From positions 1 to 56,042 of the forward strand of contig PBXQ01000054.1 of the NCBI GenBank assembly GCA_002727675.1: a stretch of DNA of 56,042 nucleotides, in the 5' to 3' direction. The position numbers and the translations under genes are program-made. The DNA is from Thermoplasmata archaeon. Lineage in GTDB: Archaea > Thermoplasmatota > Poseidoniia > Poseidoniales > Thalassarchaeaceae. The notes under the pieces were generated by a model. The model made no database searches. It had not been told where the DNA came from and saw nothing but the letters and a program-made list of their open reading frames with translations. Every line of letters begins with the position of its first letter. Position 1 is the first letter of the stretch. Positions 31,096-40,012 of the stretch are shown here, piece after piece.

Positions 31096-31686
31096 GTGGC
31101 GGTCAAATCATCAACTAAGAAACGACTAATGGAATTGGGTGTAAAAGAGGAGCTGGCACACAAGTTGGCGGATGATGCCAACATGGATACCATCAAGAAG
31201 ATGAGTGCCAATGATGTTGCTACTAAACTTGGATTGAAGATGGGTGACAATGAACTTGAGACCATTATGGATATTATTCGTGAACAATCTGCATCAAAAC
31301 GTCGCAGACCCACACGCCGGGTTGAGATGAAAGCAGAATTGCGTAAGTTGGAAACAAGTATTCCTTTGGGTGAAATGAGATTTAATGTTTTGAATCATGA
31401 ACTTGTACCACTCCATGAATTAGTTTCCGAAGATGAAGAAATGGAAGAATTGTCTCCCTGGGAATTGATAGGTTCTGATGTAGATGGCAATCAAAGATTA
31501 CGCAGGGAATTGTTGCCTAAGATTTTGATTACTGATCCAGCTATTCAGGCTCTCAAAGAGGCTCTAGAGTTGGAAAATGATGAACTTAGGGCTGGTTGGT
31601 TGAATAACAGGGTGGTGCGAATCACACGCCGTAGCCCATCTGCAGGTATTCACGTAGCTTACAGGTTAGTAGTAGAGGGTAATTAA
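31096..31686 (+). CDS. rpoH: RNA polymerase subunit Rpo5 (RpoH) with long N-terminal extension
   Basis: FNVLNHELVPLHE, LPKILITDP, VVRITRRSPSAG..YRLVV; GTG start at 31096 after GGGGG RBS. Confidence 0.9.
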   Translation: MAVKSSTKKRLMELGVKEELAHKLADDANMDTIKKMSANDVATKLGLKMGDNELETIMDIIREQSASKRRRPTRRVEMKAELRKLETSIPLGEMRFNVLNHELVPLHELVSEDEEMEELSPWELIGSDVDGNQRLRRELLPKILITDPAIQALKEALELENDELRAGWLNNRVVRITRRSPSAGIHVAYRLVVEGN

Positions 31687-31699
31687 GGAGGTTAATGAC

Positions 31700-34600
31700 A
31701 TGAAAGAAATTATTGAAACATTCTTTAGAGAAAGAAGTCTTGTGAACCATCAAATTGCTTCATACGATGATTGTCTTCCCAAAGGAGATGGCCGTAATTG
31801 TCGTTTTGAAAAAATTGTACAAGGGATAAAAATAGGAACAGACGAGGTAATTGAAGATGATGAAGGAGGATTAGTCAAACTGGACGTCCTAGATAACGAA
31901 ATTACAGTACGAATGAAGAATTTAACTTTGGGTCCCCCAACAATTCGTGAAGCAAATGGAGCAAATAATTACGACGCGACACCTTTAGAGTGCCGGTTGA
32001 GAAAATTGACTTATTCTTCTCCAATTATGCTGGATTTTACTATTCACCGTGAAGACCACCCTACTCCAATTAAGGAAGAATCAGTACAAATTGGTAGTTT
32101 GCCAATTATGGTTAGGTCAGAGAGATGCAATCTAAATCCTGGGCATGTTGACCCCAACCGCATTCTTAAGCCGGAATCTAGTGAAGAGGATAAAGAAGTA
32201 TACATGTCCCTTCTTAAGAAAAAAGGAGAAGACCCATATGATCCAGGTGGTTATTTCATTATTAACGGAACAGAAAGAGTCCTCATTTCTATGGAAGATT
32301 TAGCACCTAACAGGGTTACCGTTGAGATGAATAAGAGATATACCCGTCAAACAGAAGTTGCTAAGATATTTTCTCAGAAAGATGGTGTACGTAAGCCGTT
32401 AACTGTGGAAAAGAGAAAAGATGGAATGTTGATGGTGAAAATCAGTAGTGCAGGTGCTCAGGTAATTCCTGCTGTTTTATTGATGCGTGCTTTGGGAATA
32501 AATTCAGATGAAGAGATATTCTCATCAATTGCTGGACATAAAGATGCTTTCAAGTATGTTGTTGCCAACATTAACCACGTAAGAGACCCTGAAATCAAGG
32601 ACCCTTATGCAGTTGAAACAAATGAGGAAGCTATTGCATGGTTAGAGAAGAAATTCGCAGCAGGGCAACAAAAAGAATATCGTGAACAGCGAGTAAATAA
32701 TTTGATGGACAAAGAGTTACTGCCTCATCTTGGGCAACAACCAGAACACAGAATGAAGAAAGCCGTATTCTTGGGTAGAATTGTTCGTCAAGTTCTAGAG
32801 ATGGCCATTACAGATAAAAAAGCAAATGACAAGGATCATTATGCAAATAAGAGAGTAAGATTGGCAGGTGATTTGATTGAGGATTTGTTCAGAGTTAGTA
32901 TGACTCAATTGGCTCGTGATTTGAAGTACCAATTAGAAAGACACCATAACAGAAAGAGAGAGTTGAAGATTAACAGTTGTTTACGTCCGGATGTTTTGAC
33001 ATCTAAGATTATGCACGCTTTAGCAACTGGTAATTGGGTTGGTGGTAGAACAGGAGTTAGTCAACTTTTGGACCGTACCACATATATTTCTGCACTTTCA
33101 CATATGCGTAGAGTTACAAGTCCTCTTGTAAGAAGCCAACCTCATTTCGAAGCTCGTGATTTACACCCAACCCAATGGGGCAGGCTTTGCCCTAATGAGA
33201 CTCCAGAAGGTCAAAATTGTGGTTTGGTAAAGAACGCATCCCAAATGATTGACGTTTCTGAAGCAGTTTCTGAAATTGAGGTGCAAGAGTTACTAAGAGA
33301 AGCAAATGTAGTTGAGCCAGAAGATTGGTCAGAGGGTTCAAGAATACATGTAAATGGAGATATTTTTGGTTTGCATAAGAACCCAAACCGTCTCATAACT
33401 CATTTCAAGCGTCGCCGCAGAAACGGCCGTATCCGCCCAGAAGTAAGTATTCGTCACGATTCTGTTAATAGGGATATTTTCATCAATACTGACAAAGGGC
33501 GTATTCTCCGTCCATTATTGGTATTGGATAATGGGAATATGGTTCTTGCAAAAGAGCACATAGAGGCATTGAGAGAACGTGAAATTACATTCAAGGATTT
33601 GGTAAATAAAGGAGTGGTTGAATGGGTTGATGCAGAAGAAGAAGAAGATCTTCTAATTGCGCCAAGGCCATATGATTTGCCAGCTTTGTCTCCAAAGCAT
33701 AAAAGGCCAATTAACCCTGCTAAAGTTAATTGGAAGAATCTTGGCGAATTCGACATTTCTCATGCTGATTTAGAAGTGGATGTGCAATTGTCTAATGGTG
33801 ATTGGGTAACTGAGAAAATGAAATTACCACTGAATTACTTCCAAGAAGAAATTGAAAAATTACGCCGTAAAGAAAAGAAGAGTGGTGATGTTCTTGTATA
33901 TACTCACGTGGAAATAGATCCTCAACTAATTCTTGGTGTTTGTGCTAGTTTAGTTCCTTATCCGGAGCACAACTCTACACCTCGTGTTACTGGCGGTACT
34001 GCTATGGTTAAGCAATCACTAGGTTTACCTGCAAGTAATCACAGATTAAGGCCTGATACTAGGATGCATATTTTGGATTACCCGCAACGTTCTATAGTTC
34101 AAACAAAATCTATGGAAACCACCAATTTCGTCAACAGACCAGGTGGGCAAAATTTCATTGTAGCAATATTAAGTCATCATGGATATAATATGCAAGACGC
34201 TGTGATTATGAACCGCGCATCTGTTGAAAGGTCTCTTGGGCGTTCAAGTTTCGTCCGTACATACAATGCAGAGAAGAAAAGGTTCCCAGGTGGTCAACAA
34301 GAAGAGATTCAGATTCCAGGTGCAGGGCAAGATGAAGTAAAAGGAAGGAAGGATAGTTCTGAGTATGATCATTTAGAATATGATGGTCTCCCACATCCTG
34401 AGACAATGTTGTCTGGTAAAAGAGATGATGATCCTGCTGTTTTGGTTGGAAAAACTAGTCCACCACGTTTCCTTGAAGAAGGTCATGGTGCTTTCATGAT
34501 GGGTCAGTACCGTCAAGAGTCTAGTATGCACGTTCGTCATGGTGAGAGTGGAAATGTAGATCATCTCTTTGTGACTGAAAGTTTGGACGCAGGGCGCTTA

Positions 34601-38300: not shown

Positions 38301-38477
38301 AACGCAATGGATGACTTGAAAGTTCATGATGATGATAAGCATTCAGTTCGTAATACTGCAGATAGAATTATTCAGTTCAGTTATGGCGAAGATGGAACAG
38401 ATCCTACACGAAGTATAAGGGGTAACTCTGTCAATATACGTGCTGTTTTGGATAATGCATTAGGGGGTGGAAACTAA
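35382..38477 (+). CDS. rpoA1: RNA polymerase subunit Rpo1N (A')
   Basis: [38 protein letters not shown], catalytic [22 protein letters not shown]. Confidence 0.98.
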
Positions 38478-40012
38478 TGGTAGTTAAGTCAGCAACAAAG
38501 AAAAAACTCATGGATATGGGTATTCCTGAAGATTATGCTCATAATTTAGCAGATGGCAGGAAGTGGGATGATGTAAAGATACTATCTCAAGGTGAAATTG
38601 CTAAGATTTGTGGTCTTTCATCAGATGAAGCGGATAAGATTTTCCAAGTAATACAAAAATTTGGTAAAAGATTGCGATCATCTGCTGGTTCTACCACAAG
38701 TACAACTGTAGTTCGTCGTAGGGCTGCTAAGCGTACTATCAAAATGCAGCAAGAATTGGAGAAATTTGATTTTGATGCTAAAATGCTTCAGCTTAAAGAA
38801 GGAATTAACAACGGGCCTATTTTTGATACTTTGAAAACAACTGCAGAAAAAGAGGGCGCAGAGATTCCTCTTTTGGTATTAAGTGATTTAGCAGATGCCA
38901 TTGAGGCACGCGGCATGGAGAAATTAACTTCTAAACAGGCTAAATCTGTAATTAATGAGGTCTTGGAAGGTATTTCTAGAACTGGTGTTGATTCTTATGA
39001 AGCAGTGGGTATCGTAACTGCTCAGTCAATTGGTGAACCAGGTACTCAGATGACTATGAGGACTTTCCACTATGCTGGTGTGGCGACAGTTAACGTTACC
39101 CAAGGTTTGCCTAGGATTATTGAGATTGTAGATGCTCGTAAGGTTCCTACCACGCCAACGATGAGAATTCATCTTTCTGAAGGTTTGAAAGATGATGAAA
39201 AGAAGGTAAGGAAATTGGCAGCAGCACTTGAGATTACAGACGCCAAAGATATTGCAGTGATTGAAACTGATGTTACTCAGAGAAGAATTACTTTGAAATT
39301 AATCCCAGGTAACATGAAACAGAAAGATATCAGCCCAATTGAAGTCAAGGAAATATTGAGCCGTCGGTTAAAATTATTCATTGACTCAGATAGTGAAGCA
39401 AAGCCTAAGATTTTGACCATTATTCCTGGACGAAAGAAAGAAGCAGATGAAGTGACTCCAAATTATACTGAATTGTTGGCACTTGAAGAAAAAATCAAGT
39501 CAATGCGTCTGAAAGGTGTAGCAGGTATTGAAAGAGCAAATACTCAGAAAGATCAGAATACAGGTGAATATTACATTGCTACTATTGGTAGTAATTTAGC
39601 TGCTGTTAGCGATTTCGATGGAATTAATCGTTCTCGTACTTATACTAATAACTTGGCAGAAATTCATTCTTATTTGGGTATTGAAGCAGCACGTCAAGCA
39701 ATAATAAATGAATTAATTTTGACTTTGAATGATGCTCGCCTTGATGTTGATGTGCGTCATTTGATTACTGTAGCTGATGTTATGACTAGTGAAGGGGAAG
39801 TCCGAGCAATTGGTCGTCACGGTGTTTCAGGTAACAAGCACAGTATTCTTGCTCGTGCAGCTTTCGAAGTAACTGTTAATCACTTGCTTAGAGCAGGTAT
39901 TATCGGTGAAAAAGACGAACTTGCAGGTGTTGCCGAGAATATTATTGTCGGTCAGCCAGTAGCATTAGGAACTGGTAGTGTAGAGTTATTCTACATCCCA
40001 GAGGATGCATAA
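38477..40012 (+). CDS. rpoA2: RNA polymerase subunit Rpo1C (A'') with N-terminal extension
   Basis: [55 protein letters not shown]. Confidence 0.97.

Follow-up and report, generated by a model that had tools for sequence, protein, structure and literature searches.

Here, we describe the RNA polymerase (RNAP) genes in a stretch of 56,042 nucleotides from a Thermoplasmata archaeon of the order Poseidoniales, or Marine Group II (MGII) (assembly GCA_002727675.1, contig PBXQ01000054.1, positions 1 to 56,042 of the forward strand); this whole stretch is referred to as the window. Public names of close RpoH relatives (Candidatus Thalassarchaeum and Candidatus Poseidoniia) also point to MGII. Four RNAP genes follow each other on the plus strand. 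The first, rpoH, starts with GTG and encodes the 196-aa Rpo5 (31096-31686 including the stop codon); it was assigned based on its open reading frame (ORF), its translation, a match to PF01191, and a start that is kept in the orthologues. It is followed by rpoB, which encodes the 1225-aa Rpo2 and is named by its operon position and sequence (31700-35377), and rpoA', which encodes the 1031-aa Rpo1N and is identified from the ORF list and Pfam Rpb1 domains 1-5 (35382-38477). The last gene, rpoA'', encodes the 511-aa Rpo1C (38477-40012 including the stop codon; ORF, translation, PF04998, and TIGR02389), and its start overlaps the rpoA' stop codon by one base. We found that RpoH and RpoA'', the products of the two outer genes, begin with paralogous N-terminal modules that are translated and strongly conserved. 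This twin module is an order-wide variant of RNAP architecture.

Both proteins have the same layout. In RpoH, a predicted five-helix module, defined by an AlphaFold2 (AF2) model and alignments, occupies residues 1-66 (31096-31293), a basic tether that is predicted to be disordered from its composition and predicted local distance difference test (pLDDT) values occupies residues 67-95 (31294-31380), and the canonical assembly domain (Rpb5_C) occupies residues 96-196 (31381-31683; PF01191, NF007129 at residues 94-194, and pLDDT 80-90). In RpoA'', the corresponding module covers residues 1-63 (38477-38665; AF2 model and a profile match at residues 1-65) and is followed by a basic Ser/Thr-rich tether at residues 64-98 (38666-38770), which is predicted to be disordered on the same grounds, and then by a helix at residues 99-110 in the AF2 model and the canonical Rpo1C body (38771-40009). 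This body starts at residue ∼112-131, as judged from matches to PF04998 (residues 112-456; E 4e-46) and TIGR02389 (residues 131-505; E 1e-124), the latter with 416.3 bits and, thus, slightly below its cut-off of 420.65. The PF01191 match of RpoH is confined to residues 96-192 (E 7.8e-16; 58.1 bits versus a cut-off of 23.5), and the protein scores 53.5 bits against the NCBIfam equivalog NF007129, which is under the cut-off of 83. At 196 residues, of which 95 are an N-terminal addition, RpoH falls outside the description of Rpo5 as a single-domain protein of ∼75-90 aa. Because of this addition and the sub-cut-off NF007129 score, we regard RpoH as a divergent two-domain variant of Rpo5. The RpoH core is also unusually divergent across MGII, with PF01191 E-values of 1e-6 to 1e-15 compared with 1e-20 to 1e-35 in other members of the phylum Thermoplasmatota, and in one of the Poseidoniales families (f3) it has two insertions of ∼9 and ∼10 residues.

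A sequence-only reading of this DNA had proposed that the N-terminal extensions of RpoH and RpoA'' are homologous, and this proposal was borne out. By BLASTP, residues 3-117 of RpoH and 3-129 of RpoA'' align over 129 columns with 27% identity (E 2e-12), and identity rises to 38% across the 66-residue module alone. The Smith-Waterman score of the pair is 134, while 2000 shuffled controls gave 28.7 ± 5.2 with a maximum of 57, so that none of the 2000 reached the observed score (z ∼20). Seven residues are invariant in both paralogues (K4, S5, T7, K8, L11, L24, and A25), and G15, A21, H22, K34, and A42 are conserved at 90% or more. Each paralogue also has invariant residues of its own, namely, K10, D13, K29, and W30 in RpoA'' and R10, E13, N29, and M30 in RpoH. 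By eye and without counting, most differences between the first ∼100 nt of rpoH and of rpoA'' fall on third codon positions, which argues that the likeness of the modules is held at the protein level. A recent gene conversion between the two copies was rejected on these same third-position differences, as seen by eye.

If the RpoH extension were an annotation artefact, translation would start at the canonical domain. We found no support for this, the sole internal Met 5' of the core domain being in the linker, and we consider its probability negligible. At 19 of 20 orthologous loci, the rpoH frame begins M/V/L-[AV]-[VI]-K-S-[AS]-T-K at the matching place (the locus outside this count, L036, was missed by the search pattern), and a G-rich ribosome-binding stretch lies 5' of the rpoH GTG. 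Moreover, the frame is open and homologous in 41 of 41 and 61 of 61 genomes in the two surveys described below. For rpoA'', the start M-x-x-K-S-A-T-K-K-K is present in all 30 loci found. Finally, the proportion of nonsynonymous differences (pN) within the genus is 0.03-0.11 for the module compared with 0.14-0.20 for the RpoH core, with synonymous sites near saturation (pS of at least 0.5). The module is, therefore, under strong purifying selection and, in rpoH, more constrained than the core, which also speaks against an artefact. An identical metatranscriptome contig of 164 nt from one sample spans 31077-31236, although a contig from an RNA library proves neither transcription nor the start.

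Distribution and ancestry of the modules

Using single-sequence searches, we detected the module in 41 of 41 relatives from three families and ten genera of Poseidoniales and in 75 of 75 sampled genomes from two Poseidoniales families, and there was no match among 45 genomes of sister families of the class. A profile built from 32 sequences (A2) matched all 61 sampled Poseidoniales genomes, 59 of them with exactly two copies, one with one copy, and one with three; the genome of the window, which is 70.6% complete, has two. In a phylum-wide sample of 151 genomes, strong matches were found in all 32 Poseidoniales, and only marginal ones (E 0.003-0.007) in four of the 119 others. Two of the four marginal matches were N-termini of RpoA'', and for this reason RpoA'' was searched phylum-wide; the remaining two (in G226 and G249) were not RpoA'' N-termini and were set aside.

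RpoA'' open frames across the phylum are mostly 447-1383 aa long, with only ∼10 of the 119 at the canonical size of 357-424 aa. We sampled N-termini from 20 RpoA'' proteins of the phylum and five of the sister order. Many of the other families sampled (f4/f5, f6, f7, f18, f23, f27, f34, f37, f39, f40, and f43, and more loosely f11) carry an arm of the form M-A-+-x-D-T-x-x-A-L-x-+-R-G...A-x-K-L-A... followed by a Lys/Arg-rich stretch, the N-termini of f10, f26, and f30 have helix-hairpin-helix (HhH) repeats of the GIG type, and those of f29, f33, and f35 have a different domain. The sister-order RpoA'' is ∼758 aa long (protein P0123 at L058 1480-3756 on the minus strand; also L059-L062) and begins with an HhH-like module, to which a conserved domain of ∼130 residues (G-V-I-W-S-L-P...N-Y-T-Q-V-E-D) and a second HhH-like stretch are added in turn. 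The ∼130-residue middle domain has no Pfam match, and a similar domain is present in families f11, f17, and f34.

The picture for RpoH is different. Its open frames are ∼200-244 aa in Poseidoniales; outside the order, they are 81-121 aa in five sister-order genomes and 76-181 aa in the phylum sample, in which, judged by open-frame size, no RpoH outside Poseidoniales carries a copy of the module. These lengths agree with the sequence-only reading that canonical Rpo5 has no such module, as does a published description (PMC2675907). Based on these comparisons, the RpoH copy appears to be specific to the order, and the RpoA'' arm is shared with at least a dozen other families of Thermoplasmatota. 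The earlier suggestion of a lineage-specific appendage, thus, holds for RpoH but not for RpoA''.

Profile comparisons point to the origin of the module. Using hhalign, the MGII profile matched a profile of 13 RpoA'' N-termini from twelve other families with 91.8% probability (E 7.2e-7), in register from residue 3-4, and matched the sister order alone with 69.5% (E 4.2e-5); in one other family, the arms precede Pfam HHH_5 domains (E 1.6e-19), and some other arms precede HhH repeats of the GIG type. The MGII RpoA'' module, thus, descends from the N-terminal HhH arm that RpoA'' has in many Thermoplasmatota families. In a tree of 54 module sequences, the MGII modules form one clade separate from the arms of other families (support 100/100), and most forks are unresolved because only 68 columns are usable. 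The RpoH copy falls in with the RpoA'' copy of Poseidoniales rather than with the arms found outside the order, and we therefore suggest that rpoA'' was most likely the source of the module on rpoH, a gene 7.4 kb further upstream in this operon, and that the copying took place in the stem of the order. Afterwards, each paralogue fixed its own residues.

The surroundings of the two module-bearing genes have features of their own. A gene for tRNA-Lys(UUU) lies at 30971-31045 on the plus strand, 50 bases 5' of rpoH, and a T-run at 31069-31078 separates the two; two rpoH loci from metagenomes have a tRNA-Lys gene in the equivalent position (alignment A7). On the minus strand, 29300-30799 encodes a 499-aa protein with an N-terminal class I methyltransferase domain (PrmA/MTS-like) and a biotin/lipoate protein ligase domain. 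In RpoA', the match to Pfam Rpb1 domain 2 falls into two stretches. Some 200 extra residues (residues ∼339-557; window ∼36396-37052) lie between the end of domain 1 (residue 338) and the best stretch of domain 2 (from residue 558) and hold two Cys pairs (C-L-N-P-E-C ... C-P-H-C) that are zinc-ribbon-like in appearance. 3' of rpoA'' lies rpl30e (40059-40358), the end of which is overlapped by four bases by an ORF of 352 aa without a Pfam family (40355-41413, plus strand). In many archaea, nusA occupies the position after rpl30e.

Predicted fold and possible functions

AF2 models were made of RpoA'' residues 1-115 (pLDDT 72) and of full RpoH (pLDDT 75; predicted template-modelling score 0.44). 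In both, the module has a pLDDT of ∼80 and consists of five predicted helices (residues 6-13, 18-25, 30-35, 38-45, and 52-66 in RpoH; 6-13, 18-25, 30-34, 38-45, and 49-67 in RpoA''), which in these two independent models would form two HhH motifs and a connector helix. The tethers are different in character. In RpoH, residues 67-95 have 10 Lys plus Arg and four Asp plus Glu among 29 residues, with pLDDT values below 50 at residues 69-88; in RpoA'', residues 64-98 have 10 Lys plus Arg, three Asp plus Glu, and nine Ser plus Thr among 35 residues, with pLDDT values of 54-62 and no secondary structure at residues 68-98 in the model. The net charges of the tethers are, thus, +6 and +7, respectively, and the Arg-rich linker of the sequence-only reading is found in both subunits as an Arg/Lys-rich linker.

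In Foldseek searches against the PDB, the best rows were consistently (HhH)2 domains: the C-terminal repeats of NusA, the N-domain of RAD51/RadA, FANCM-FAAP24, XPF, and Hef (probability 0.9-1.0; rmsd 2-3.4 Å; 54-72 columns; sequence identity 9-25%). A Foldseek-independent structure search (VIA) gave Z 6.4-8.3, with SAM domains at 8.3, NusA at 8.1, and FANCM at 7.8, and also DisA, Hef, Topo V, and LigA; in this tool, a shared arrangement of helices may by itself account for a Z below 8. The top match was the SAM domain 3bs7_B (Z 8.3; rmsd 1.7 Å over 65 residues), in a Z range that is non-decisive for small helical domains. The DNA-binding (HhH)2 matches (RAD51/RadA, XPF, Hef, FANCM-FAAP24, DisA, Topo V, and LigA) superimpose over 54-72 residues with an rmsd of 2-3.6 Å. 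A fold search in BFVD gave nothing informative, and neither MGII protein matched a Pfam SAM, alpha-CTD, or Rpb5 N-terminal domain at E up to 1. We, therefore, name the predicted fold (HhH)2/SAM-like from the combination of the two structure searches, neither of which is decisive. The sequence-only reading had likewise expected a helix-hairpin-helix-like domain akin to those of NusA and RadA; by prediction, SAM domains have to be added to that list.

What might these modules do? According to PMC2675907, archaeal Rpo5 lacks the Rpb5 jaw, and the groove that results is filled in Sulfolobales by Rpo13, the basic tail of which reaches the downstream DNA and entry channel. The MGII modules are probably alpha-CTD-like arms near the jaw that bind DNA or a partner. 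In the reading that we favour, to which we give a little less than an even chance, they would be DNA-contacting arms on the side of the polymerase that faces the jaw or the downstream DNA. According to this model, in which the location is taken from the literature, the modules would be flexibly tethered mobile arms; the basic tethers and the HhH hairpins may contact duplex DNA without sequence specificity; and a partner could still dock on the conserved face of neutral charge, to which the invariant N-terminal K-S-x-T-K-K belongs. The glycine of hairpin 1 (G15) is among the residues conserved at 90% or more.

Several observations weigh against DNA-contacting arms. The module itself is not basic, with 11 Lys plus Arg and 12 Asp plus Glu in RpoH and 10 of each in RpoA''. 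None of the Foldseek matches in the PDB reached an E-value of 0.001 or lower, all being at least 0.04, and no Pfam HhH family matched either MGII protein at E up to 1. The glycine of hairpin 2 is kept in family f1 but replaced by Glu (C-E-T) in the RpoA'' of family f3. Protein-binding folds match as well as DNA-binding ones, with Z 8.3 for SAM domains and Z 6.7-8.1 for the NusA acidic repeats.

The fold matches also bear on whether the two modules bind each other and together form one DNA clamp, in the manner of the XPF-ERCC1 and FANCM-FAAP24 (HhH)2 pairs. FANCM-FAAP24 and XPF, which are obligate (HhH)2 heterodimers, are among the best matches, both copies are kept in 59 of 61 genomes, and each paralogue has its own invariant residues. 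We nevertheless consider such a heterodimer very unlikely. There is no positive sign of contact between the modules, and because many other families have the RpoA'' arm and none has it on RpoH, the arm works without a partner copy. A structure prediction for the two 66-residue modules together, based on alignments A4 and A5, scored 0.00 against a mark of 0.32 with the controls unfolded, and argues neither for nor against binding.

Orphan proteins that share the N-terminus

The module is not confined to polymerase subunits. Among 1.84 billion representatives searched, the module profile matched 205 proteins at E of 0.001 or lower. The 150 matches listed comprise 32 RpoH or RpoA'' proteins, whole or as fragments, 46 proteins too short to classify, and 72 with tails unrelated to RNAP, which we refer to as orphans. 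The 72 tails among these listed matches fall into 44 groups, 12 of which have two to five members, a group count that is too high for the short singletons, as these may be fragments of RpoA'' linkers. One match, P0197 (2474 aa; 17 short stretches), was disregarded as an apparent hit to repeats or low-complexity sequence. The orphans keep the extreme N-terminus nearly unchanged, including a 13-residue string that is almost identical, and most retain only profile positions 1 to ∼45. Because their first ∼40 residues are almost unchanged, recognition of a partner reads more easily than generic DNA binding, which adds to the points against DNA-contacting arms.

The orphans are encoded on short contigs from metagenomes, and for one cluster member the size fraction sampled was 0.1-0.22 micrometre. 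Except for an AAA ATPase in P0205, they have no Pfam domain. Profile searches did not find orphans in 61 MGII genomes, P0209 and P0204 have no relatives in a collection of species-representative genomes, a module-profile scan of IMG/VR confirmed none of 174 pattern matches, and tblastn gave no match in GenBank phage records. A PHROGs search with 13 orphans and 12 ORFs of the metagenome contig L087 (see below) gave no hallmark; the matches were to the ATPase part of P0205 and, marginally, to phrog_7921 and phrog_5321 (E ∼0.001-0.009). In the ESM Atlas, the P0204 tail scored 0.90 with a viral hypothetical cluster and 0.86-0.89 with PEP-utilising enzymes, both under the trusted level of the tool, and the P0220 tail had no usable match.

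In the tree, the orphan modules stem from both host genes and from both families. P0167 and P0200 are nested in the RpoH clade of family f1 (97/90 and 96/82), and, with weaker support, P0205 falls in the RpoH and P0256 in the RpoA'' of family f3. A metagenome scan with the orphan P0281 gave 30 loci, of which 29 were ordinary rpoH operons and only L087 held an orphan (9974-11242); the comparison at the DNA level rests on this one case. Over codons 1-40, the L087 gene is identical to the host rpoH of locus L088 at 113 of 120 bases (94%; alignment A7), which exceeds the 105 of 120 between two host rpoH genes (L088 and L089). The match covers the G-rich stretch that precedes the start codon and leaves out the tRNA-Lys gene further upstream; beyond codon ∼40, the differences are mostly nonsynonymous. 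The L087 orphan is, thus, a recent DNA-level copy of the 5' end of a host rpoH. Its contig is rich in ORFans, with 11 of 13 ORFs lacking a Pfam family, and the 616-aa neighbour of the orphan gene occurs in none of 201 MGII genomes.

A DNA-level copy such as that in L087 allows for the orphans to be a by-product of recombination, in which mobile elements recombine or integrate at the 5' end of rpoH or of rpoA'', or capture it along with the signals for translation start, so that the orphan N-terminus would say nothing about the role of the module. The identity of the L087 orphan to a host gene above that between hosts, the shared ribosome-binding stretch without the tRNA, the mostly nonsynonymous differences after codon ∼40, the restriction of most orphans to profile positions 1 to ∼45, and the ORFan-rich L087 contig with its 616-aa neighbour all fit this explanation. 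However, no insertion at rpoH or rpoA'' was present in any MGII genome or metagenome locus examined; in metagenome loci that hold both genes, their starts are ∼7.3-7.4 kb apart, and 59 of 61 genomes have two copies of the module. Synonymous sites in the host genes are not conserved, so that an attachment site at the DNA level would be unstable. In addition, two older groups of orphan families (P0259/P0270/P0272 and P0237/P0265/P0266) have only ∼40-50% identity in the module but keep its hydrophobic pattern and full length, which looks like a domain under selection in new proteins. Altogether, we find it distinctly unlikely that the orphans are uninformative in this way.

One orphan family of ∼210 aa combines a polymerase segment, its RpoA''-type N-terminus, with a ribosomal one. 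Four of its five members (P0206, P0207, P0225, and P0271) end in G-L-G/E-S-L-F-G, and in three of these four the motif is also present internally. The last ten residues of P0206 are identical (10/10) to the tail of ribosomal stalk P1 encoded in the genome of the window (...GFEGLGSLFG), and stalk P0 of that genome ends in a variant of the motif, ...GFGGLGDLFG (locus L117 430-1764, contig C42). According to PMC5887453 and PMC4267659, the ribosomal stalk tail recruits translational GTPases. The presence of the module and the stalk tail on one orphan, therefore, favours mimicry of host interaction handles.

Seen in this light, the module may be mainly a protein-protein domain that recruits a host factor, as the second acidic repeat of NusA (NusA-AR2) binds alpha-CTD and as SAM domains do, with mobile elements or viruses having copied its first half to reach or compete for that partner. 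Such a docking handle would be consistent with the SAM and NusA acidic repeat matches, which are as good as those to DNA binders, with the net charge of the module of about zero, and with 72 of the 150 listed matches having tails unrelated to RNAP behind almost unchanged N-termini that were taken from both genes and both families. Likewise, the stalk-tail family would combine two host-machine handles, and K29-W30 in RpoA'' versus N29-M30 in RpoH would suggest two distinct surfaces. On the other hand, there is no known or predicted partner, the orphans lack matches in IMG/VR and GenBank phage records as well as a PHROG hallmark, and the L087 copy, which includes the ribosome-binding region, might stem from recombination instead of selection for mimicry. 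In other families, moreover, the ancestral arms resemble ordinary DNA-binding HhH domains. We regard a docking handle as possible but rather unlikely.

A bolder proposal, about which we are more doubtful still, is that the module serves as a lineage-specific address tag. MGII mobile elements or viruses would then have taken up the 5' ends of both genes, rpoH and rpoA'', on repeated occasions, in one family together with the stalk tail, so that their own proteins could engage the partners of the host polymerase and ribosome or compete for them. If so, this would be a modular mimicry system made of host-machine handles. Orphans with the first half of the module offer a route to the poorly known mobile elements of MGII and to their strategy towards host transcription and translation.

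Novelty and comparison with known systems

In a literature search that did not extend to the supplements of papers, we found no published description of the RpoH and RpoA'' modules or of the RpoA'' arms of Thermoplasmatota. Passages of PMC9258230 make no mention of N-terminal modules on RpoH or RpoA'', and those of a survey from 2026 on the small subunits of archaeal RNAP (PMC13257274) treat Rpo6 and Rpo8 and mention neither Poseidoniales nor an Rpo5 extension. The literature describes archaeal Rpo5 as having no N-terminal domain, yet one is present throughout an order of marine archaea that is very abundant. The RpoA'' arm, in turn, is widespread in Thermoplasmatota, including lineages with complete genomes and, in family f7, cultured Thermoplasmatales.

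The closest relatives of the MGII modules are the RpoA'' HhH arms of other Thermoplasmatota, which also start at residue 1, consist of a module and a Lys/Arg-rich linker, and are homologous at the profile level. They differ in that there is no copy on RpoH, and several add HhH repeats or an unrelated domain. Compared with (HhH)2/SAM-like domains in general, the predicted five helices and two hairpins are alike, whereas the MGII modules have no Pfam match and hairpin 2 is degenerate in part of the order.

In architecture, the modules resemble the bacterial alpha-CTD, for which they would be an archaeal counterpart. Both are small helical domains of the HhH type that are connected by a flexible linker to a polymerase subunit, with two per enzyme, and the fold matches of the module include NusA-AR2, a binding partner of alpha-CTD (entry 2jzb). 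The alpha-CTD serves both DNA contact and the docking of factors. The resemblance is architectural only, however; the MGII modules are N-terminal, they are on the non-homologous Rpo5 and Rpo1C and not on the Rpo3/11 equivalents, they have no Pfam alpha-CTD match, and their tethers are strongly basic.

Two further systems involve the surroundings of Rpo5 itself. Rpo13 of Sulfolobales, as described in PMC2675907, on which this analogy is based, is likewise small, helical, and specific to its lineage. It occupies the space next to Rpo5 that the missing Rpb5 jaw leaves at the DNA entry channel, and its tail is highly basic; it differs in being a separate subunit with a helix-turn-helix and not a fused (HhH)2 domain, and the MGII arms are placed at this position only tentatively. 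The eukaryotic Rpb5 jaw, which PMC2675907 implicates in downstream DNA binding, is similar in that Rpb5 and MGII Rpo5 are both two-domain proteins of ∼200 residues with an extra N-terminal domain. Nevertheless, MGII RpoH has no match to the Rpb5 N-domain (E up to 1), its predicted fold class is (HhH)2/SAM-like, and because a disordered linker joins module and body, the module is probably not packed against the body as the jaw is. If the arms are located as we suggest, they would represent a third independent way to fill the jaw region beside Rpo5, after the Rpb5 jaw and Sulfolobales Rpo13. We conclude that the N-terminal domain of MGII RpoH is an acquisition independent of the Rpb5 jaw.

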